Under the pieces are notes generated by a model, which saw nothing but the letters and a program-made list of their open reading frames with translations, had not been told where the DNA came from and did no database searches. A stretch of DNA of 64,000 nucleotides from Candidatus Poriferihabitaceae bacterium (GTDB lineage Bacteria; Pseudomonadota; Gammaproteobacteria; Arenicellales; Poriferihabitantaceae), in the NCBI GenBank assembly GCA_965249835.1, contig CBDFMY010000003.1, positions 358,286 to 422,285 on the forward strand. The letters are read 5' to 3'. Shown piece after piece: positions 1-50,700 of the stretch. Numbering within the stretch: the first letter of the stretch is position 1; every line of letters starts with the position of its first letter. Made by a program: the position numbers and the translations under genes.

Positions 1-989
1 TCACCGGCCTGTATATGAAAAACTGGGAAGAGGACGACCACCAGGAATACTGCGCCGCCGCCGAAGACCTGGCCGATGCCGAGGAAGTTTGCAAACAACT
101 AGGCATTGAACTTCGCACCATTAATTTTTCCCACGAATACTGGACGCGCGTGTTCCAGTTATTTCTGGAAGAATACCGCAACGGCCGCACACCGAATCCG
201 GATGTGGTGTGCAACAAGGAAATCAAGTTCAAAGAATTCCTTGACTGGGCGATGCGACTTGGCGCCGATTACATCGCCACCGGTCATTACGCGCAACTCG
301 AACGGCGCGAACGCCGTTGTTTTTTGCGCAAGGGGCTCGATGAAAACAAAGATCAAAGTTACTTCCTGCACACCCTGGGGCAGGATGCGTTGCGCTTGTC
401 GAGTTTTCCCATCGGCGGAATGCGCAAGACGCAGGTGCGAAAAATTGCGCGGCAACTTGGCTTACCGACCCACGACAAAAAAGACAGCACCGGCATTTGC
501 TTTATCGGCGAACGACGCTTCACCGATTTTCTTGGTCGCTTTCTGCCGGCGCGCAAGGGTCGGTTGAAAACGCCGGAAGGCGAAACCGTGGGCGAACATC
601 AAGGCGCGTTTTATTACACCATCGGCCAGCGGCGCGGGCTGGGTGTCGGTGGGCGCGGCGAAGCCTGGTATGTCGCCGACAAAGACATCGTGCGCAACAT
701 TGTTTATGTGGTGCAGGGACACGACCACCCAGCTTTGCTAAAGCGCGTGGTGCTTGCCGAAGATTTGCATTGGATCGCCGAGGTGCCGCCGTCGGTGCCG
801 ACTCGTTGCGTCGCCAAAACCCGCTATCGACAGGACGATCAAAAGTGCGTAATCACGAGCATCAAATCAAACTATTCGCGCATTGAATTCGAACAACCGC
901 AATGGGCGGTCACCCCGGGCCAGTCCGTGGTGTTTTATCAGGGAGATATTTGTATCGGTGGCGGCATCATCCGCTCGGCTTCTAATTAG
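1..989 (+). CDS. mnmA: tRNA 2-thiouridine(34) synthase MnmA, 5'-truncated by the window edge
   Basis: The frame of ORF 15..989 stays open back to nt 3 (TGLYMKNWEEDD...). The translation is colinear with MnmA/TrmU (FMKNWEEDD, RTPNPDVVCNKEIKF, KDQSYFL, KKDSTGICFIGE). Confidence 0.9.
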   Translation, partial: TGLYMKNWEEDDHQEYCAAAEDLADAEEVCKQLGIELRTINFSHEYWTRVFQLFLEEYRNGRTPNPDVVCNKEIKFKEFLDWAMRLGADYIATGHYAQLERRERRCFLRKGLDENKDQSYFLHTLGQDALRLSSFPIGGMRKTQVRKIARQLGLPTHDKKDSTGICFIGERRFTDFLGRFLPARKGRLKTPEGETVGEHQGAFYYTIGQRRGLGVGGRGEAWYVADKDIVRNIVYVVQGHDHPALLKRVVLAEDLHWIAEVPPSVPTRCVAKTRYRQDDQKCVITSIKSNYSRIEFEQPQWAVTPGQSVVFYQGDICIGGGIIRSASN

Positions 990-1035: not shown

Positions 1036-3200
<2,165 letters not shown>

Positions 3201-3202
3201 TA

Positions 3203-4279
3203 ATGTATTCCATCCTGCGCCGCATTTTATTCGCAGCCGAAGCCGAGCGTGCGCACGACCTCAGCATGGCCGCGCTGGCGATGACATCACGCAGCAAAGC
3301 ACTGTGCGCGTTGCTTGCCCAATGCAACCGCACCCAACTCGCGGTGCCGCACAAAGTCATGGGCATCGAGTTTCCCAATCCGGTGGGGCTTGCCGCCGGC
3401 TTTGATAAACACGCACGCGCCGGCAACGCCCTGCACGCGCTCGGCTTCGGCTGGCTCGAACTCGGCACGGTCACGCCGTTGCCGCAACCGGGCAACCCCA
3501 AACCTCGCTTGTTTCGCCTCAACCAACACGATGCCCTCATCAATCGCATGGGCTTCAACAGCGGCGGACTTGAGCGCTTTTTGCAAAACATCGCGCACGC
3601 CGACCGGCGCATCATCAAGGGCATCAATATCGGAAAGAACGCCGCCACCGGCATGCGGCAGGCACTGCACGATTATCTCGCCGCACTGACCGCGGTGCAT
3701 GCCCAGGCCGATTATGTTGCCATCAACCTCTCCTCGCCCAACACGCCGAAGTTGCGCGAATTGCAACAGGCCGATGCCCTTGAACCGCTTCTTCGCGGCA
3801 TCAACCGCAAGCGGATGGCATTGGCCGACGCATCCGGACGGCGCGTGCCGCTGGTGTTAAAAATCGCTCCGGATTTGAACGACGAAGAGGTCGGCCACAT
3901 CGCCGAACTGTCGCGCAAACATCAAATCGACGGCATCGCGGCAACCAACACCACGCTGGCACGAAGCGGAGTGGAACACCACGCTCTTGCCGATGAACCG
4001 GGCGGCTTGAGTGGGCCGCCGCTGGCACCGCTTTCCACCGAAACCATCCGCCGACTGTTTCGCAATTTGCAGGGGGAAATCCCGATCATCGGTGTCGGTG
4101 GTATCGACTCCGCCGAGTGCGCATTGGAAAAATTTCAGGCCGGCGCGGAACTGGTGCAGTTGTATACCGGACTCATTTATCACGGGCCCAAACTGATTCG
4201 TGACATCATCAAACTTTTGCGCACCGAAATGAAAAGCGGGCAAACCATGCGCGGTTATCTGGATGAAATACGCCCTTGA
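3203..4279 (+). CDS. pyrD: dihydroorotate dehydrogenase (quinone), class 2
   Basis: Start taken at ATG 3203 (MYSILRRILF...). The upstream part of ORF 3083.. overlaps rluF and is Arg-rich noise. Motifs seen: GLAAGFDK, GFNSGG, INLSSPNTP, GGLSG. Confidence 0.9.
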   Translation: MYSILRRILFAAEAERAHDLSMAALAMTSRSKALCALLAQCNRTQLAVPHKVMGIEFPNPVGLAAGFDKHARAGNALHALGFGWLELGTVTPLPQPGNPKPRLFRLNQHDALINRMGFNSGGLERFLQNIAHADRRIIKGINIGKNAATGMRQALHDYLAALTAVHAQADYVAINLSSPNTPKLRELQQADALEPLLRGINRKRMALADASGRRVPLVLKIAPDLNDEEVGHIAELSRKHQIDGIAATNTTLARSGVEHHALADEPGGLSGPPLAPLSTETIRRLFRNLQGEIPIIGVGGIDSAECALEKFQAGAELVQLYTGLIYHGPKLIRDIIKLLRTEMKSGQTMRGYLDEIRP

Positions 4280-4308
4280 AAGAACATGTGAAACAACGCG
4301 GCGGCACG

Positions 4309-5220
4309 ATGACTTCCATTTCTTTCAACCGCAAGTTTGAATTTCGCTACGGCGCAATGAAGCGGTTGACGCCGCTGGTGCGGCGCGTGGTGGCGCGCAA
4401 TCCCGGCCCGTTCACTTTTCACGGCACTTCGACCTTTATCGTAGGCAATCGCAAGGTGGCGGTGATTGATCCGGGCCCGGCATTGCCGGAACACATTGAT
4501 GCCATCGTCAAGGGACTGGAAGGCGAGATCGTCAGCCACATCATCGCCACCCACGCCGACCATTCGCCGGGGTGTCGTCCGTTGCAGGAAAAAACCGGCG
4601 CGCCGACCTACGGCTTCGGGCCCCACGCCCTCCCCGCCGGCGCACCGGAAAGCGGCATTGACGACGGCATTGACCGCGAATTCGTTCCCGACCATCGGCT
4701 CGGCGATGGCGATGTCATCTCCGGATTGGACTGGCACTTGCGCGCCGTTCACACCCCGGGCCACTGCGCCAATCATTTATGCCTCGCCCTGCCCGAAGAG
4801 AACACTTTGTTTTGCGGCGACCAATTGATGGCATGGTCGACCACGGCAATCCTGCCGCCGGACGGCAACGTCGGCGACTACATCGCCAGCCTTGAGGCGT
4901 TGAAGCGGCGACCGGAAACCATCTATCGGCCCACCCACGGTGCCGCCATCGCTCCGCCCATGTGGCCGCGCCCCTACATCGGGCAAATCATCGCCCATCG
5001 GCGGCGGCGGATCGAAGAAGTGTTTGAGGCTGTCACCTCGGGGCTTGCAGACATCCCGGCCATGCGCGTGCGCATCTATCAGGGCCTCGACCCGGCACTG
5101 CACGGCGGCGCCGAACTTTCCATTCTCGGGTCGCTGCAGTTTCTGCTGGAGCAGGGACGGATTATCGAGAGCCGGGCGGCTTCCGAGGCGGCCGGTTCGG
5201 CGTTTCGCCCAGCCACCTGA
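4309..5220 (+). CDS. MBL-fold metallo-hydrolase
   Basis: Degenerate metal motif IIATHADHSPG, a later VHTPGHCANH, and an overall beta-lactamase-fold-like layout. ATG at 4309 is preferred; TTG at 4276 overlaps the pyrD stop. Confidence 0.65.
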   Translation: MTSISFNRKFEFRYGAMKRLTPLVRRVVARNPGPFTFHGTSTFIVGNRKVAVIDPGPALPEHIDAIVKGLEGEIVSHIIATHADHSPGCRPLQEKTGAPTYGFGPHALPAGAPESGIDDGIDREFVPDHRLGDGDVISGLDWHLRAVHTPGHCANHLCLALPEENTLFCGDQLMAWSTTAILPPDGNVGDYIASLEALKRRPETIYRPTHGAAIAPPMWPRPYIGQIIAHRRRRIEEVFEAVTSGLADIPAMRVRIYQGLDPALHGGAELSILGSLQFLLEQGRIIESRAASEAAGSAFRPAT

Positions 5221-6376
5221 CTTGCGTGCGGTTGCGATGATGACGAAACACGAAAGCCTGTCGCTGTTGCGCACGGTGCAGGATTCGCTCGAAGCGATTC
5301 AAAAGATAAATAGTAATGTCCACCATCGGCAATGAGCGCCACTCCCGCGGCCGAATCCATCGCAAATCGCTTAGTTCATCGGTGTCGGCCGGCACGCCGT
5401 GCACCGCGGATTGCGGCGCGACAAAAAACCGCGCATTAAAACGCAACGGCATGGAAACCGGCGTCACCGCTCGACCGACATATATCAGGGAACGCAAGCA
5501 GGGTTGCAAGCCGGCGGCTTTGATGGTGCGCCAGCCGTGGTCGTGGACATCGCCGACATGGCCGGGCGTGCCCAGCATGAGCCCGGTCTCCTCGACGGTT
5601 TCGCGGATGGCGGTTTTGGCAAGAGCGGCGGCTCTGGCGGGATTCCCGCGCACCCCCATCAAGTTCGCGCAGGAGTCGTGCAACTGCCCGGCCGCCGATG
5701 CATGGAAATCTTCCGGCTGCAACACGCCGCCGGGAAAAACATACATCCCCGGCATAAAGCGATTGGAATAAGCGCGCCGCCCGAGCAGCACTCGCGGGTC
5801 GCCGTCCATATCCCGCACCAGAATCAAACTGGCGGCATCGCGGATGGAGTTGTGTTGCGTGTCGTGTTGCATGGATGTCGCAACCCCCTTAATCTTGCAC
5901 TCGAACACGTAATCATCCATGACATATCCGCCGCCGATGTCGGTGACCACTTGCCCGGTGCGGGTGAAGCCGGTGCGTTCATAAACGGCGATGGCGACGG
6001 TGTTGTGTCGGTTGACCGTGAGGCGGATGGTAGCCAGCCCGCGTGCGCCGGCGAATTGCAGGATAAACGCCACCGCGCGCCGCCCGAGACCCTTGCCGCG
6101 CACCGATTTATCGAGATACAACTTACTCAAAAACAGCGTCTCGCGCTGGCGTTGCAGGCCGATATAACCCACCGCACGGTTTTCATACCGGATTAAAAAA
6201 TACCAGTAATCCTGGTGCGCGATTTGCTCGGAAATCGCCTCCGGCGACTGGAATTTATCGAGCATATACGCCACCTGCCCGGCACCGATGATGGGCGCAT
6301 AGTGGTCGCTCCAAATCTCCCGCGCAAGGCGGGCGACCGTTGCCACATTCCGTTTGGATGAAACTTCGACGAACAA
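5162..6376 (-). CDS. bifunctional-looking GNAT N-acetyltransferase / NUDIX hydrolase fusion
   Basis: Residues 1-165 have a GNAT core (LYLDKSVRGKGLGRRAV, VAIAVYERTGF). Residues ~180-400 have a NUDIX box (FPGGVLQPEDF...AIRETVEETGL). It is one uninterrupted 404-aa ORF. Confidence 0.75.
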   Translation of the reverse strand: MFVEVSSKRNVATVARLAREIWSDHYAPIIGAGQVAYMLDKFQSPEAISEQIAHQDYWYFLIRYENRAVGYIGLQRQRETLFLSKLYLDKSVRGKGLGRRAVAFILQFAGARGLATIRLTVNRHNTVAIAVYERTGFTRTGQVVTDIGGGYVMDDYVFECKIKGVATSMQHDTQHNSIRDAASLILVRDMDGDPRVLLGRRAYSNRFMPGMYVFPGGVLQPEDFHASAAGQLHDSCANLMGVRGNPARAAALAKTAIRETVEETGLMLGTPGHVGDVHDHGWRTIKAAGLQPCLRSLIYVGRAVTPVSMPLRFNARFFVAPQSAVHGVPADTDELSDLRWIRPREWRSLPMVDITIYLLNRFERILHRAQQRQAFVFRHHRNRTQVRWLGETPNRPPRKPPGSR

Positions 6377-6569
6377 ATAAAATAACCCTGCAATGACCCG
6401 GTAATGACATTAGGAACCGCGGATGACGCACAAACGACCCGGCCCCCAAAGGAACTATACTGGATTCGGCGACGGCGCGGGGTAGCCCTGACGCCGCGCT
6501 CACGAGCACCAAAACACCGCCGCCAAGCGATCTTCCGGCGGGAACTGGTGGGCCTATCCGAGGTCGCCG

Positions 6570-6632
6570 AAAATGAACGCCCATTGTGAACGCTTCAACC
6601 GCACCATTCAGGAGCTTGGATTCAACTCTTAA
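6570..6632 (+). pseudogene. 3' relic of an rve (integrase-core) transposase gene
   Basis: Frame 6585..6632 reads CERFNRTIQELGFNS*. The ERFNRTIQE motif recurs in the rve fragment at 63371..63568. Confidence 0.5.
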
Positions 6633-6810
6633 GTGCAACTTCACCGATGAAGGAAAGATGAGATGCGGTAGCATCTTGATTTTCCAGAATCAATATAAGG
6701 AGTTGCCATATGAAACGCTACACGCACCTCACCAGTGAGCAACGATACCTGATTTCCAATGGGTTGAAAGAAGGCTATTCACAACAAGCCATCGCCGCGA
6801 TTGTCGGCGG
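6618..6810 (+). mobile_element. IS30-family 5' remnant (left inverted repeat plus the first ~33 codons of the transposase)
   Basis: GGATTCAACTCTTAAGTGCAAC (6618-6639) matches the inverted end seen at 60915-60945. The ORF from 6710 reads MKRYTHLTSEQRYLISNGLKEGYSQQAIAAIVG (IS30 HTH N-terminus) and then loses similarity. Confidence 0.6.
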
Positions 6811-6849
6811 AGTATTTGACACCGAAACGCGAGCCAAGCGATCGATGTT

Positions 6850-6990
6850 GGTTGAGCTGTCTCCATCACCGCCGGGGGAGTTGATTTTGGTGGAATTGGT
6901 TATGTTGCCGTAAACGGTTGTTTCCGCTTGCGCCGCCACCGACGCCACCACCGCGGCGGATACCGCGGCTGCGATTAGTTTCTTGTTCAT
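6850..6990 (-). pseudogene. 5' fragment of a porin-like outer-membrane protein gene
   Basis: MNKKLIAAAVSAAVVASVAAQA/ETTVYGNI: a Sec signal peptide with an AQA cleavage site and a porin-like first strand. The reading frame runs into the IS30 remnant after ~45 codons. Confidence 0.4.
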
Positions 6991-7381: not shown

Positions 7382-8563
7382 ATGACATCAACCAAAAAAT
7401 TAAATCCGTTTCAGCCTGGCTTTGGGAAACAACCGCCTTATTTAGCCGGTCGGGAAAGCCAGAAAACCGAACTTAAAAAGGTTTTGGCCGACTTGGAAGG
7501 TGGACGGTCTCCCGCTGCTACAATGGTTATGTATGGGCCGCGGGGCATGGGAAAAACAGCCATGCTGAGTTGGTTTAAAGGGGAAGTTCAAAGTGTTAGC
7601 ACAAAGGATAAACCAATACGTACAGTTTCGACGGTTCCGTCTGATTTATCTTCTCCGGCGGAGTTGTGGGATTATTTGTTACCACAGAAAGTATGGCAGA
7701 AATTTATTCCAAAGGCGATTAGTGGAGGATTCGCCGGAGTATCTGGTTCTCTTACCTGGGGGTCGCGTAATCCGGCTAAACAAACATTGCAAAAGAATCT
7801 AATCAAAGAATGTAAAAAACGACCCACGATATTTTTGATGGATGAAGCGCACAGGATGGATGCGGGGTTGTGTGCGGATTTGTTAAACATTGATCAAATG
7901 ACGCGAAATAAATCTCCCTTTTTGTTAATCCTTACTGGCACCCCCGATCTTCGCGATATATTATCCACGGTGAACGCTACTTTTGCTGAGCGTTCCAACA
8001 AGATAGGCCTTGGTCGTTTGGATGATCAGTCAACTGCGGACGCTATTGTCAAACCGTTAGACGAACATGGCATGACTATAACCGATAAAGCCCTTGCGAA
8101 AGTTGTTGAAAGCAGTCAGCAATTTCCTTACTTTATACAACAATGGGGCAGTTTTCTTTGGGACGCTGCAACTAGCGCAAATTTGACATGTTTGACTGAT
8201 CAGCATGTTGATGCTGTAGAATCCTTTGTCAATAACAAAAAGATAGAGCTTTATCGTGATCGTCTGGTTGAACTGTCTAAGGATGAAGATGTGTTGTCTG
8301 CCGCGCAGGTAATTGCAAAAGAGTTTAAGGATAAGCATCAGCATAGAACGGCTTATATTATTTCGGTAATTAAAGAAGCGTTGCCTGATGCATCAGCAAC
8401 TAATTTAGATGCAATAGACCTATTAGGAAAATTAACGCGGCATAATTTAATTTGGTGTCCGCCTGGAGCTTTATATGAACCAGGTATCCCCAGTTTGATG
8501 ACATTTATATTGGACGAGCAACAAAAGAACGTTCGGACGGATGCATTAGAGACGCCAAAGTAA
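7382..8563 (+). CDS. AAA/STAND-type ATPase (Arch_ATPase / AAA_16-like)
   Basis: NPFQPGFGKQPPYLAGRESQ lead-in, Walker A YGPRGMGKTAM, Walker B IFLMDEAH. Visibly lower GC than the flanks. Confidence 0.7.
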   Translation: MTSTKKLNPFQPGFGKQPPYLAGRESQKTELKKVLADLEGGRSPAATMVMYGPRGMGKTAMLSWFKGEVQSVSTKDKPIRTVSTVPSDLSSPAELWDYLLPQKVWQKFIPKAISGGFAGVSGSLTWGSRNPAKQTLQKNLIKECKKRPTIFLMDEAHRMDAGLCADLLNIDQMTRNKSPFLLILTGTPDLRDILSTVNATFAERSNKIGLGRLDDQSTADAIVKPLDEHGMTITDKALAKVVESSQQFPYFIQQWGSFLWDAATSANLTCLTDQHVDAVESFVNNKKIELYRDRLVELSKDEDVLSAAQVIAKEFKDKHQHRTAYIISVIKEALPDASATNLDAIDLLGKLTRHNLIWCPPGALYEPGIPSLMTFILDEQQKNVRTDALETPK

Positions 8564-8625
8564 CCGAGCCGGCTAACGCCGCCGCTTTAGGATTCCCGCT
8601 TGCAGCAAGGATGACGAAATAAGAG
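8551..8625. repeat. mosaic repeat fragment
   Basis: gagacgccaaagtaaccgag...gccgccgctttaggattcccgc...gatgacgaaataagagtcgtgattgc. The same modules occur at 11225-11270 and 11640-11760. Confidence 0.75.
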
Positions 8626-8710
8626 TCGTGATTGCCCGGTGCCGCCAACTTGTTGCCCGGCTTGACCAACTAATCCAGTTAATTAAACCCAGCGTAGCCG
8701 CTGGCATTAT

Positions 8711-9100
8711 TCACTCAGGCTCAACCTCAAAAACCGGCAGGCCGCTCATCGCTCTGATGAACTTCAACAACTGTTTTCGCATGCGCTCAGGCAACCGACG
8801 AAAATGGTGTAGCAAGGCTTTTTCCTCACGGCTCATCTTGATTTTCGGCTGACTGCCCGGCGGCGGTGTGTTTTGCGTGCAGTGTCGCTGCGGGAAAACG
8901 GTGCCGGTGGCCAGCCACTGAGGGTCTTGCTGCAATACGCCGGCGAGCGCGAAAAAATACTCCAGTTTGATGTTTTTGCTCAATCCATTCTCCCACTGAT
9001 TGACCGCTGAAGCCGACACGCGCAGCGACTTAGCCAAATCCGCCTGCGACAAACCCGCCATTTTGCGGGATGTACGAATTCTCTCTGCCAGGGTAGTCAT
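8711..9100 (-). CDS. XRE-family helix-turn-helix transcriptional regulator
   Basis: LAERIRTSRKMAGLSQADLAKSLRVSASAVNQWENG is a canonical HTH_3 motif. Divergent from the adhesin gene across an AT-rich 256-bp spacer. Confidence 0.85.
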   Translation of the reverse strand: MTTLAERIRTSRKMAGLSQADLAKSLRVSASAVNQWENGLSKNIKLEYFFALAGVLQQDPQWLATGTVFPQRHCTQNTPPPGSQPKIKMSREEKALLHHFRRLPERMRKQLLKFIRAMSGLPVFEVEPE

Positions 9101-9356
9101 GACAAATATACTGAATTTTTTTCATAAAGTATGCTTGATTTTATAAATTCAATCTGCTATCTTTCTGCCCGATTGGGAAATTAGTCGGTCTGATGGCGGG
9201 TGAATCGTGGGAATTCATACTGAATTCCTTAGGCTTTTCCTCCATTTTTCAACCTTTCCCTTGACCGTAGCCCCCTTGGCAAAGCCGCGAAAGCGGGTTT
9301 TCAGTGGGGTAACTCGTTGTTTTTTATCAATGTTATGAACAAGAGGAAACAGACAA

Positions 9357-38589: not shown

Positions 38590-39010
38590 AGGAGTTATCT
38601 ACGCCGCGTCTGGTCCCCGCCTGCCGCGAGGATGACGGTCTGGAGATGTGGTTTGGATTATGACGGTATTAGTTACTCTCATCGTTTTTTAGTTCTGGGT
38701 TCTCGCCTTTGGCGAGAACAACAGACTGGATTCCCGCCTGCCGGCGAGAATGACGAATGAAAGGGCAATAGTGAATTGAAAAGACAAAGGCGCGTTGAGA
38801 AGCCAAAAGTAACCGAGAAAAACTGCCAGCGAAATAGTGAACGTATACACCGCCTGCGGCATGAGGGTTCATCGGCCAACGATGCCCTATTTTGGCGACG
38901 CGGTAAAACCCTCTTATTTGGTAGCCAATATGCTGGATTTGCATGGCATCTCCTCTTGGGTTGAGGAGTGCCATATGTATCTGAGCTTATGCAGTATGTG
39001 GTGGCACATA
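38590..39010. repeat. mosaic intergenic repeat block plus a solo ~75-bp IS-end-like repeat
   Basis: attcccgcctgccggcgagaat (38730-38751), gaaaagacaaaggcgcgttgagaagccaaaag, and 38925-39000, which is ~95% identical to the reverse complement of 59680-59755. Confidence 0.85.
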
Positions 39011-41418: not shown

Positions 41419-43530
41419 TTAAAAAGGTTCCACCTCAACGCGCTCGCCAGCGTTCACATGCGCGCAATCGGTGGGCAGGATGATGAAGCAATTGGCTTCG
41501 CCCATGGAGCGCAAAATCCCCGAACCTTGTACGCCGGTGGATCTGACCACGGTTTCGCCACTCTCGTCCCGGCACAAAACCCCGCGTTGATATTCCGTGC
41601 GTCCGCGTCTTTTTTTCAGCGCGCCCACACTCTTGACCATGAGTCGCAACGGCGTTGTCGGTTGCGCGACTTCGCCGGCCAGCAGTCGCAACGCCGGCGC
41701 GACAAAAATTTGGAAGGTGACCATCACCGACACCGGGTTGCCGGGCAATCCAAAAAACAAACTCTTGCCGTCGCTATTTTTGCGTACCTTGCCGAAGATC
41801 AACGGTCGCCCCGGTTTGATTGCGACTTTATGGAACACCACTTGGCCGCGCCGCGCCACGATGTCGCGAATGTAATCGGCATCACCGACCGATGCGCCGG
41901 CGGAAGTGATTACCAGATCGGCGCACTCGGCGGCATGCGCGATGGCCGCGTCGAGCGCGGCGGCATCGTCCGGCACGATGCCGAGGTCCACCATTTCCAC
42001 GCCGAGTTGCGACAACATGCCGTGCAGCGTGTAGCGGTTGGAGTCGTATAGTTCGCCGATGTTCAGCGCGGTGCCGAGCGGGCGCAATTCGTCTCCGTTG
42101 GAAAAAAACGCAACGCGTGGTCGGCGCAACACCGGCAACTCGGCAAACCCGAGCGATGCCGCCAACCCGATGTGCGATGGTGCCAACCGACAACCGGCGG
42201 CGATGGCGATGTCGCCGACCTCAATATCTTCACCGGCATAACGCACATTGGCACCGACTTGCGCGCCGCCTTCTTGCACCACGATGCGCTCGCCGTCTCG
42301 TGTCACCTGCTCTTGCGCGACCACGCTGTCGGTGCCGTTCGGCATCACCGCGCCGGTCATGATGCGCACGCATTGGCCGGCGCGCACCTTGCCGTGAAAT
42401 GGCTTGCCCGCCATTGAGGTGCCAATCACACGCAGTGTTGTCGCGTGTTTGTCACGCGATGCATCAGACAAATCCGCGCCGCGAAATGCGTAACCATCCA
42501 TCGCCGAATTGGTGTGGTTCGGCACTTGCACGCGGCTGGCAATGTCCACCGCAGCCACTCGTCCCAACGCCGTGCGCACCGCCACCGTCTCAACTGGTTT
42601 GAGTGGCGCAGTGGCACGTGCGATCAACTCATGCGCACGCTCGGCGCTGACCGAATTCGGGTCGGTGTCGCAATCAATACGGTCGGGTGGTTCCATGGTG
42701 GAATGGTTACCGGAAAATCGCGAATGCAAGCATACTTCGACGTTGAGTATTTTAGTCAACTCTTTGGCGTAGTCATGCAATCGGTCGTGCAATGCTTTGG
42801 CATTCGCTTCTTTCAAGCGCGGCGAGACGAGCAACACTTCCAAATGATAGGTTGATTCGCCGCGCACGCCGGTGTTTTTTTCCAATGGTGGGCAAGACAA
42901 AACCCATGCATCGCGCAAATGTTCTTCTTTCAGTTGCTGGTATTTTTTGCCAACGCAATTTTCAGGATCTTTGTTCAGCACAAACAAAACAATCGTTGCG
43001 TTTTTTTGTTTGGACTCGCGGGCGATCTTCCGAATGATTTGTTTCTCGGAATCGGCTTTCACTTCACGAGGAAGAAAATCGCCAAACGGATCAATCAAAA
43101 CCATTTCGTTTTTGCGCACACAATCCAAAACAGAATAGCCGTCTTGCGCGTCAAATCCTTCGCGCTTTAGTTCACATATGCCGTAATCCGCCAACTCTTT
43201 GCGAGTATTCTGGTCTTTGTCGGAAGCAAAAACCTGCGCCGTTTTGCCGGCATTTTCAGCGGCACGGCAAACGAGAAAACTGCTGCCGTAATAACGACCC
43301 TCGGCAATTTCCGCTTGTGCATCAAGCAACGCGAAACCATCCAGTTTTTTCACGCGTTCAACAACAGCCGGCACCGCACGGTGGTCCGGCTTCCCGCCGA
43401 ACGGGTCGAGGAAGGTGATGGTGTCGTCGCCATCGCCATCACCATACCAATGCACCAACTCGGCGAGCAGGCCGTGCTTCAACAAATCCCCGGCGTTGCC
43501 GGCATCGTATAGAAATTTATTCGTAGTCAT
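41419..43530 (-). CDS. moeA: fusion protein: N-terminal RlmJ-like (DUF519-fold) methyltransferase-like domain plus C-terminal molybdopterin molybdenumtransferase MoeA
   Basis: The C-terminal ~425 aa are MoeA ([38 protein letters not shown]). The N-terminal ~280 aa carry RlmJ-like motifs ([27 protein letters not shown]). The start ATG at 43530 overlaps the moaC stop (ATGA). Confidence 0.75.
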
Positions 43531-44036
43531 TTTTCCACATCCGCCCGATTCCATTCGCCGGATTTGCCGCCGGATTTATGCACCAGGCGGACTTGGTTGA
43601 TTTCCATCCCGCGGTCGACCGACTTGCACATATCGTAGATGGTCAGCAACGCGGTTTGTACCGCGGTCAATGCTTCCATTTCAACGCCGGTGCGCTCGGT
43701 GGTGGCGGCTGTGGCAGTGCAATGTATGGCGTGGCTTTCGTGGTCGGGTGCCGATTTCATCGAAAACTCCACGGAAATATACGTCAGCATGATCGGATGA
43801 CACAGCGGCACCAACTCGGCGGTTCGCTTGGCACCCATGATGCCGGCCACGCGGGCGACGGCAAGCACATCGCCTTTTTTATGTGCGCCGGATTCCAGCA
43901 TCACCAGCGTATCGACATTCATGCTAATCCGGCCCTCGGCCACCGCCTTGCGTTCGGTGGCGCGCTTGCGCCCGACATCCACCATGTGCGCTTCGCCACG
44001 TTGGTTGAGGTGCGTGAGTTTGCCTTTCTTTGTCAT
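43527..44036 (-). CDS. moaC: cyclic pyranopterin monophosphate synthase MoaC
   Basis: [30 protein letters not shown] and TGVEMEALT. Confidence 0.92.
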
Positions 44037-44175
44037 GTGGTCATTCGTGGTTTAATCGTCACGAGGTCGCGATTAAAGTTCATTGCTATCGATACGACTG
44101 CCGATAATAATGGTATCGTAATGCGTGTGCAAATCGCCGGCAACTCTCGTGCATAGCGACTCAATTCTATTTTCC

Positions 44176-50219: not shown

Positions 50220-50299
50220 AATGAACCGGGCATGTTACCGAAACCCTGCGGATTATAGACAATCTCGACGCCTATTTATCGCAACTCCGCCGCCGAAAT

Positions 50300-50700
50300 A
50301 AGGAGTTCGGCTACGCCAGAGCAACGTCGTTTTAGTGTCACGCTTCGCGTGACACTTATTTACCATTGTCTTCTCAAAAGGACTCATCGCCGCCCGATTT
50401 ACCGTTGTCCTCCCAGTCCGTCATTGCGCGCCGTATTTTGCGCGTATCATCCCTGATACGCGCCCTTCGGGCTCGCTTCGCTCGCGCCCAGTCGATTCAT
50501 GGCGCTCCCGGCGATTTTTTCGTTGTCAGGCAAGGCGCGCGAGGAGCGAGGAAGGGAGCATACATTAAGTATGTGAACGATCGAGTGACGATGCGCAACA
50601 CTACACTGCACTGCACAGCACAACGACCACAACGACCACAACGACCATGGCGACGAAAAGGCAAGCGCAATGGGGCAAGCGAAACGGCTATACTGCGCAC
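50300..50700. repeat. mosaic intergenic repeat block
   Basis: Contains the palindrome gtgtcacgcttcgcgtgacac, the 24-nt hairpin (50440-50463, opposite orientation), and a family-A unit with an internal 3 x cacaacgac microrepeat. Confidence 0.85.

Follow-up and report, generated by a model that had tools for sequence, protein, structure and literature searches.

A stretch of 64,000 nt from a Candidatus Poriferihabitaceae genome (contig CBDFMY010000003.1, positions 358,286 to 422,285; hereafter the window) carries, directly after moaC, a single open reading frame (ORF) in which a methyltransferase-fold module of the RlmJ type is joined in frame to a complete MoeA. We consider it likely that this product is a genuine, evolutionarily retained fusion found in a clade of gammaproteobacteria that are associated with sponges and akin to Candidatus Poriferihabitaceae (order Arenicellales), that it originated when a foreign gene entered the moaC/moeA junction and later lost its stop codon, and that its two modules act independently; this level of confidence applies to the explanation as a whole.

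A methyltransferase-fold module joined in frame to MoeA

A preliminary description of this region, made from the letters alone, had reported a 703-aa ORF whose start overlaps the moaC stop, and direct reading agreed: the start codon ATG 43530-43528 and the moaC stop TGA 43529-43527 share an ATGA overlap. An alternative in-frame ATG at 43554, 24 nt upstream of ATG 43530, would yield 711 aa and a 28-nt overlap with moaC; the 703-aa form is the one used in public gene calls, and relatives likewise start at the ATGA overlap. The C-terminal part is, as had been proposed, a normal MoeA, with the Pfam domains MoeA_N, MoCF_biosynth and MoeA_C (143.4, 106 and 66.8 bits) spanning residues 295-703, and with a match to the NCBIfam MoeA equivalog NF007960 that reaches 526.6 bits (cut-off 440) and covers model positions 2-401 of 401. 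The internal in-frame ATG 42696 (Met279), which had been placed at the beginning of the MoeA homology, is homologous to the start codon of the stand-alone moeA of relatives. The lower GC content noted for the N-terminal part was also borne out: it has 49.4% GC (54% at third codon positions, GC3), compared with 61.3% (GC3 70%) in moeA and 58.0% (GC3 71%) in moaC.

The fusion itself is established by its recurrence. An identical 703-aa sequence has been recorded from a 1.91-Mb contig, and a 98%-identical 703-aa protein from a different sample (locus L058) is encoded on a 2.80-Mb circular contig at 1173x; the two genes differ at 39 nt, yet they have the same junction, including its TTTT run. When the whole protein was used as the query, three further full-length fusions came up (P0126, P0127 and P0128; 691-694 aa, 79-80% identity), located on separate megabase contigs from one sponge metagenome and set in the same gene neighbourhood, and no others were seen among the best 120 of 7,597 MoeA relatives. 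The junction of the window reads ...CGA TTT TCC GGT AAC CAT TCC ACC ATG GAA..., while the three 79-80%-identical fusions are joined through a second junction, HELPT-MTT (...CAC GAA TTA CCT ACC ATG ACC...).

The preliminary description had named a sequencing error that hides a stop codon as one way in which the fusion could prove false, and the window offers a concrete site for it: one extra T in the TTTT run would frame the TAA at 42707-42709, 10 nt before ATG 42696, which is the arrangement of the unfused loci L004 and L063 described below, and the assemblies are metagenomic. Against such an artefact, the independent 1173x sample has the same junction despite 39 substitutions elsewhere, in three other genomes the fusion runs through another junction, in which no homopolymer takes part, and a run of 4 nt is a short, low-risk error context. 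Since those three fusions differ in their junction, a stop hidden by homopolymer error is very unlikely, and with five fused genomes and two junctions contradicting it we find the idea that the genes are really separate barely credible. Programmed frameshifting at the TTTT run was also considered and rejected from a reading of the sequence, because CGA-TTT-TCC is no slippery heptamer of the X-XXY-YYZ form, no stop lies close by after a +1 shift, and a -1 shift would need re-pairing of tRNA-Phe on AUU.

The features of the gene and its operon are collected in Table 1. Going by its resemblance to the consensus, the hexamer pair before moaC could serve as promoter of the operon; the weak match inside X lies in a region with 5 sigma-70-like sites, where 1.7 were expected. 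We also observed that the sister genome L058 has an insertion of ~945 bp (8142-9087) between moeA and a cold-shock gene, absent from the window, parts of which resemble window positions 38638-38755 and 50297-50425, suggesting a small repeated or mobile element.

Table 1. Features of the fusion gene and its operon, in nucleotide positions of the window, and motifs of the N-terminal module, in residues of the protein.
Feature	Position	Strand	Basis
Fusion ORF: RlmJ-like module, linker and MoeA; 703 aa, ~77 kDa	41419..43530	-	ORF reading, Pfam, NCBIfam
Fusion ORF stop codon	41419-41421	-	Direct reading
MoeA module, residues 289-703, molybdopterin molybdotransferase	41422..42666	-	Pfam, NCBIfam
Linker, residues 272-288, predicted disordered	42667..42717	-	pLDDT <50, junction alignments
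Former moeA ATG, within linker	42694-42696	-	Junction alignments
Out-of-frame TAA, within linker	42707-42709	-	Junction alignments
TTTT run, within linker	42714-42717	-	Junction alignments
Module X, residues 1-271, class I SAM-methyltransferase fold of RlmJ type	42718..43530	-	PDB profile match, AlphaFold2/Foldseek
Weak sigma-70-like match in 3' end of X	42749..42776	-	9/12; ~50 nt before ATG 42696
moaC, 169 aa	43527..44036	-	Pfam MoaC, E 5e-56
Sigma-70-like hexamer pair upstream of moaC	44104..44133	-	Consensus match only, 9/12
Motif X of the module	11-20		Sequence reading
LDPFGG	41-46		Sequence reading
RYYGSS	79-84		Sequence reading
SD (Ser-Asp)	103-104		Sequence reading
DGY	130-132		Sequence reading
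DPFGDF	147-152		Sequence reading

Family X and its relationship to RlmJ

We use the name family X for the relatives of the N-terminal module (residues 1-271). On their own, the N-terminal 278 aa gave nothing significant in Pfam, NCBIfam, PADLOC or a PDB sequence search. A homology search with the module returned 167 relatives, and those listed are nearly all stand-alone proteins of 254-361 aa without Pfam domains, with one exception, P0066 (PF04255). When 1.84 billion cluster representatives were searched exhaustively with a profile, only 388 clusters were obtained at E <=1e-3, and the family is therefore rare.

A profile built from 42 members matched the PDB chains of E. coli RlmJ at E ~2e-6, and in the HMMER alignment the RlmJ segments HAGNHADVLKH, YLDTHAG, RYYPGSPLI and LILIDPPYE were paired with motifs of X (including LIDPFGDF). 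The AlphaFold2 model of X was of high confidence (predicted local distance difference test, pLDDT, 93.5; predicted template modeling score, pTM, 0.91), and when it was compared with the PDB by Foldseek, a check that had been proposed for this part of the protein, the best 14 matches were all RlmJ or the DUF519 protein 2OO3 (E 2e-10 to 5e-9, template modeling (TM) score 0.58-0.67). RlmJ was matched at E 2e-10 and TM 0.65, and the next fold dropped to E 2e-5 and TM 0.48; a viral structure library gave generic methyltransferase matches only, with TM <=0.41. The model and these matches establish for X the fold of the RlmJ type, a methyltransferase domain with an inserted subdomain and an N-terminal motif X.

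The four motif pairs on which the RlmJ likeness had originally been proposed thus hold up, joined by the profile match (E 2e-6) and the structural match (TM ~0.65), and the converse, that profile searches would find the N-terminal region unrelated to RlmJ/DUF519, is contradicted by the 42-member profile. The likeness does not extend to membership of the Pfam family: the window module has no match to PF04378 (RlmJ) at E <=10, and only 3 of the 42 members match it, all below threshold (best E 8.6e-4). By gathering score X is not a Pfam RlmJ member; it is a rare, unannotated sister family of RlmJ.

The residues that X shares with RlmJ include catalytic and cofactor-binding ones. In both, motif X (G-N-x-x-D-x-L-K-H) contains the catalytic Lys18 next to His19, and both have motif I LDxxxG, the RYYxGS serine, the acidic residue of motif II, the D-G-aromatic of motif III and the D-P of motif IV. 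In the HMMER alignment S83 of X corresponds to RlmJ S100, D104 to E118, D-G-Y to D143-G-F and D147-P148 to D164-P165; D15, K18 and H19 of motif X are kept, and an aromatic residue, F44, lies at the position of RlmJ H42. In RlmJ, Lys18 and Asp164 have catalytic roles, and H19, S100, E118 and D143-G-F contact S-adenosylmethionine (SAM) (PMC3814359). The family alignment shows that the catalytic Lys18/Asp pair and the SAM contacts are retained in X: K18, H19, D104 and D147-P148 are invariant and S83 nearly invariant in the 42 members, and the window copy has every one of the 22 residues that are invariant in the family.

Motif IV of X is DPF(G/A/S)(D/E)F rather than DPPY, and the preliminary description had taken the change from DPPY to DPFG as a sign that the domain may be inactive or re-purposed. 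The change is present as reported, and as a sign of inactivity it is weak, since in RlmJ the residue that stacks on the target base is W195 and not Y167 of the DPPY (PMC3814359), and since K18, D147 and the SAM contacts of X are invariant. From these residues we infer that X is probably still able to bind SAM and to transfer its methyl group to an amine, in a nucleic acid or elsewhere.

Stepwise origin, translation and selection

A survey of genomes for a fused or separate gene, which had been suggested earlier, found five fused genes, three separate genes and one empty site, and together these document how the insertion came about. In L062, whose MoeA is 68% identical, moaC and moeA share an ATGA overlap with no trace of X. 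In L004 (a Candidatus Poriferihabitaceae metagenome-assembled genome, MAG) and L063, X is inserted as a separate gene, in the order moaC, ATGA, X (270 aa), TAA, 10 nt, moeA ATG, and in L001, where X is also separate, its stop overlaps the moeA start as ATGA. In L059, L060 and L061, X is fused: relative to the L001 junction there is one extra TACC (TACC to TACCTACC), the sole difference between them at the junction, and it brings moeA in frame. In the window and L058, also fused, the out-of-frame TAA at 42707-42709 is homologous to the in-frame stop of L004 and L063, and because this old stop survives out of frame, the window lineage was fused by different indels. X has 49-51% GC against 55-63% in its neighbours in all five genomes measured, which fits its acquisition before the lineages split. 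The earlier proposal of an acquired module that lost its stop codon is thus confirmed by the empty site, the three separate copies and the shared GC deficit. A homologue 63% identical to X lies elsewhere in the genome of L002.

The series suggests the following course. The ancestral moaC and moeA were translationally coupled through their ATGA overlap, and a foreign, GC-poor gene for an RlmJ-like methyltransferase inserted exactly at their junction, taking over the ATGA overlap with moaC and leaving moeA coupled to the X stop, since moeA has no Shine-Dalgarno (SD) sequence of its own. Small indels at the junction then put the X stop out of frame and created a single ORF, by a 4-nt tandem duplication of TACC in one lineage and by other indels in the window lineage, with the old TAA left out of frame. 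The step from coupling to fusion requires just a tiny indel. On this course the fusion would be a side effect of a gene's insertion where translation of two genes was already coupled, and X would be hard to lose because moeA expression relies on it.

The dependence of moeA on the gene before it follows from its missing SD sequence. No SD-like purine run occurs in the 25 nt before ATG 42696 (GCGATTTTCCGGTAACCATTCCACC), in agreement with the preliminary description, and no moeA SD sequence was found in the three junction arrangements inspected (window, L001 and L004), so that moeA translation depends throughout on ribosomes arriving from the upstream gene. The expected product is one polypeptide of ~77 kDa consisting of an intact X, a disordered linker of ~17 residues and a complete MoeA. 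Its MoeA part would insert molybdenum into molybdopterin as usual, and its X part would probably be a competent SAM-dependent N-methyltransferase, most likely with a nucleic-acid substrate. In the full-length model both modules fold confidently, residues 272-288 have pLDDT <50 and the whole-chain pTM is 0.46; with such a linker and chain score no fixed packing between the domains is predicted, and most likely the modules act independently.

Free MoeA might be made alongside the fusion protein, by internal initiation at ATG 42696 or from an internal promoter, which would be compatible with a retained fusion. The ancestral moeA start is kept in frame in both junction types, and a weak promoter-like match lies at 42776-42749, from which separate moeA transcription is conceivable but very uncertain. 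We hold two products to be rather unlikely, given the lack of an SD sequence before ATG 42696 and a promoter match of only 9/12, of a kind that is common in the region.

Sequence comparison within the clade indicates that X is maintained. The ratio of nonsynonymous to synonymous substitution rates (dN/dS) is 0.22-0.61 for X in all pairs with enough differences, compared with 0.08-0.22 for moeA; X is under purifying selection, more relaxed than that on moeA. None of the eight clade copies of X contains a frameshift or stop. X is also unusually variable: among four co-occurring genomes (L059, L060, L061 and L001) the nucleotide distance in X is 8.5-15% and that in the adjacent moeA 1.6-2.1%, and when the region corresponding to window 42697-43530 was compared, similarity among these co-occurring strains switched in blocks, giving a mosaic that points to recombination in X. 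Between the window and L058 the relation is reversed, with 0.8% difference in X and 2.6% in moeA.

These data bear on whether X could be a decayed, catalytically dead passenger, in effect a long leader or N-terminal extension of MoeA that is kept by the translational dependence of moeA. The junctions that were read (window, L001 and L004) agree with this idea in that moeA has no SD sequence and is always coupled or fused to X; moreover, X is without the full DPPY and without the counterparts of RlmJ Tyr4 and His6, and its dN/dS is 2-3 times that of moeA. A dead passenger would nevertheless be hard to reconcile with dN/dS values well below 1 and eight copies free of frameshifts and stops, with the retention of all family-invariant residues, including the K18/D147 pair and the SAM contacts, or with an intact fold predicted at high confidence, and we regard it as quite unlikely.

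Several points weigh against a retained fusion of two independent modules, one of them an active methyltransferase. All supporting assemblies seemingly come from similar long-read metagenome pipelines. The weak promoter-like match upstream of ATG 42696 makes it possible, judging by its sequence, that free MoeA is also produced. The fused state occurs in 5 of the 8 clade genomes that carry X, which could mean that fusion was selected rather than neutral, and for this independence of the modules offers no explanation. Finally, Tyr4 and His6 are essential in RlmJ (PMC3814359) and their equivalents are absent from X, where the His6 column is Leu or Phe and no Tyr is conserved at position 4, and the replacement of DPPY by DPF(G/A) may reflect differing chemistry or substrate, or lost activity.

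As a separate observation, L062 carries at 8454-9275, inside the NADH dehydrogenase cluster, an N6_Mtase/Eco57I/MmeI-like restriction-modification gene whose start overlaps the end of a Complex1_49kDa (nuoD-like) gene by 4 nt. Here, too, a methyltransferase-type gene may have entered a housekeeping operon where two genes were coupled.

Family X in other genomes and comparison with known systems

Scanning species-representative genomes with the single protein gave no loci, and an alignment-based scan gave 54. The 50 X loci outside the clade lie nearly all in MAGs, many with project titles of the sponge-symbiont type, among which Vicinamibacterales and Alphaproteobacteria dominate. In eight of them, from Vicinamibacterales MAGs (L008, L015, L017, L028, L035, L037, L038 and L051, at ~4200-6850 in each), X directly follows a gene for a NERD nuclease joined to a superfamily 1 (SF1; UvrD-like) helicase, often with a 4-nt overlap, and the upstream gene in these eight loci matches the PADLOC model RTasNERD-Hel, with E down to 1e-55. 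L045 encodes at 2734-6846 a PglW-like protein of 1,370 aa (PglW 1046 bits) with NERD and double-kinase parts and a C-terminal X domain; it was rejected as a full BREX type 2/Pgl locus, its neighbours having no PglX, PglY or PglZ matches. X is fused to DUF429 in L023 (5992-7668), and among cluster representatives (P0247, P0271, P0280 and P0256) it is fused to an N-terminal Swt1-like HEPN RNase (E 1.6e-36) and also to a PIF1-type helicase. Many X proteins are ~400 aa long with an unannotated N-terminal extension of ~120 aa.

Several genomes have 2-3 X paralogues, and in sponge-symbiont MAGs stops or truncations disrupt many copies (L020, L021, L036, L043 and L046-L051), consistent with the turnover of a mobile or conflict gene. 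In nine loci (L012, L013, L014, L018, L024, L025, L034, L043 and L044) we also observed a conserved convergent neighbour of ~255 aa just downstream of X on the opposite strand, which had no Pfam or PADLOC match.

These associations suggest that X is a conflict-system or mobile methyltransferase rather than a cofactor enzyme, and the partners found elsewhere (NERD-helicase, HEPN, PIF1 and PglW-like kinase) point to a role in nucleic-acid conflict; the pair of NERD-helicase and X may be an undescribed defence-type module. One could go further and propose that X is the modification or sensing part of undescribed conflict systems, and that the solitary copy at moaC/moeA became entrenched by capturing moeA translation, as a form of genetic addiction. 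We put this forward only tentatively and think it unlikely as it stands; if true, the host could not delete X without losing MoeA, and the mosaicism of X would reflect ongoing conflict with phages or between strains. Kinetic-aware long reads of sponge-symbiont MAGs could expose the methylation target of X.

Another reading is a functional tie between X and molybdenum-cofactor biosynthesis or its regulation, with the fusion selected for co-localisation; X might then modify an intermediate of the pathway, a molybdoenzyme or a regulatory RNA of the operon. In favour of such a tie, X has persisted between moaC and moeA in lineages with MoeA proteins only ~70% identical, is fused through two junction types in the majority of its clade carriers noted above, and is under purifying selection. 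Yet in none of the 50 loci outside the clade does moaC or moeA lie within 6 kb of X, which rules out a general link between X and molybdenum-cofactor genes; the close relative L062 has moaC-moeA alone, the 63%-identical homologue is placed elsewhere in the L002 genome, X is otherwise partnered by nucleases, helicases and kinases, and no confident packing between the domains is predicted. We therefore consider a cofactor role highly improbable, and there is no evidence here for new molybdenum-cofactor chemistry or a new pathway. The preliminary description knew of no link between an RlmJ-fold domain and this cofactor, and in the library that we could search no paper likewise connects RlmJ-like domains with MoeA or with NERD systems; searches for MoeA-methyltransferase fusions and DUF519 returned nothing relevant.

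The retained fusion favoured here is of interest mainly for its history, and family X as a lead in conflict systems. Natural genomes display the birth of a fusion, from an empty site through a foreign gene at a coupled junction to an in-frame fusion, and a series with two junctions, one of them just a 4-nt duplication away from the unfused state, lends itself well to the study of how genes fuse and how acquired genes become entrenched when symbiont genomes are reduced.

The closest known proteins to X are E. coli RlmJ (YhiR), the 23S rRNA m6A2030 methyltransferase (PF04378, formerly DUF519; 4BLU/4BLV/4BLW, 6QDX, 7P8Q), and Legionella LPL1258 (2OO3). Like RlmJ, X has ~270-280 aa and a methyltransferase domain of Rossmann type that is interrupted by an insertion following motif I, but identity to RlmJ is only 14-16%. 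Whereas RlmJ is a single-copy housekeeping gene, X is patchily distributed and GC-poor, a genome often holds several copies of it along with pseudogenes, and its links are to NERD-helicase, HEPN, PIF1 and kinase modules.

In these links X resembles the modification modules of defence systems, such as restriction-modification, BREX/Pgl with PglX and the PglW kinase, and the NERD-helicase candidates: it adjoins or is fused to NERD-helicase, PglW-like, HEPN and PIF1 proteins, and it is hypervariable. Unlike known defence modules, it matches no PADLOC model; in PADLOC-DB v2 the window copy reached only 13 bits (E 0.01), and the single match among the 42 members had E 0.0099. The PglW-like locus differs from BREX/Pgl in having no PglX, PglY or PglZ, and the window copy differs from the NERD-helicase loci in having no adjacent nuclease or helicase partner.

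Fusions of MoeA as such are known and include MobB-MoeA (NF011060/PRK14491), MoeA with a domain of unknown function (NF011067/PRK14497), and the eukaryotic gephyrin and Cnx1, which combine a MogA-type G domain with a MoeA-type E domain. The window protein scored 451.9 bits against the MobB-MoeA model NF011060 (cut-off 532), aligning only over model positions 191-594, the MoeA part; it fits neither this model nor NF011067. As in the known fusions, MoeA tolerates extra domains, including N-terminal ones, and the partner comes from the same operon; the known partners are proteins of the cofactor pathway, whereas that in the window is a methyltransferase fold without a known role in it. What is new is the domain architecture, together with an unannotated sister family of RlmJ.

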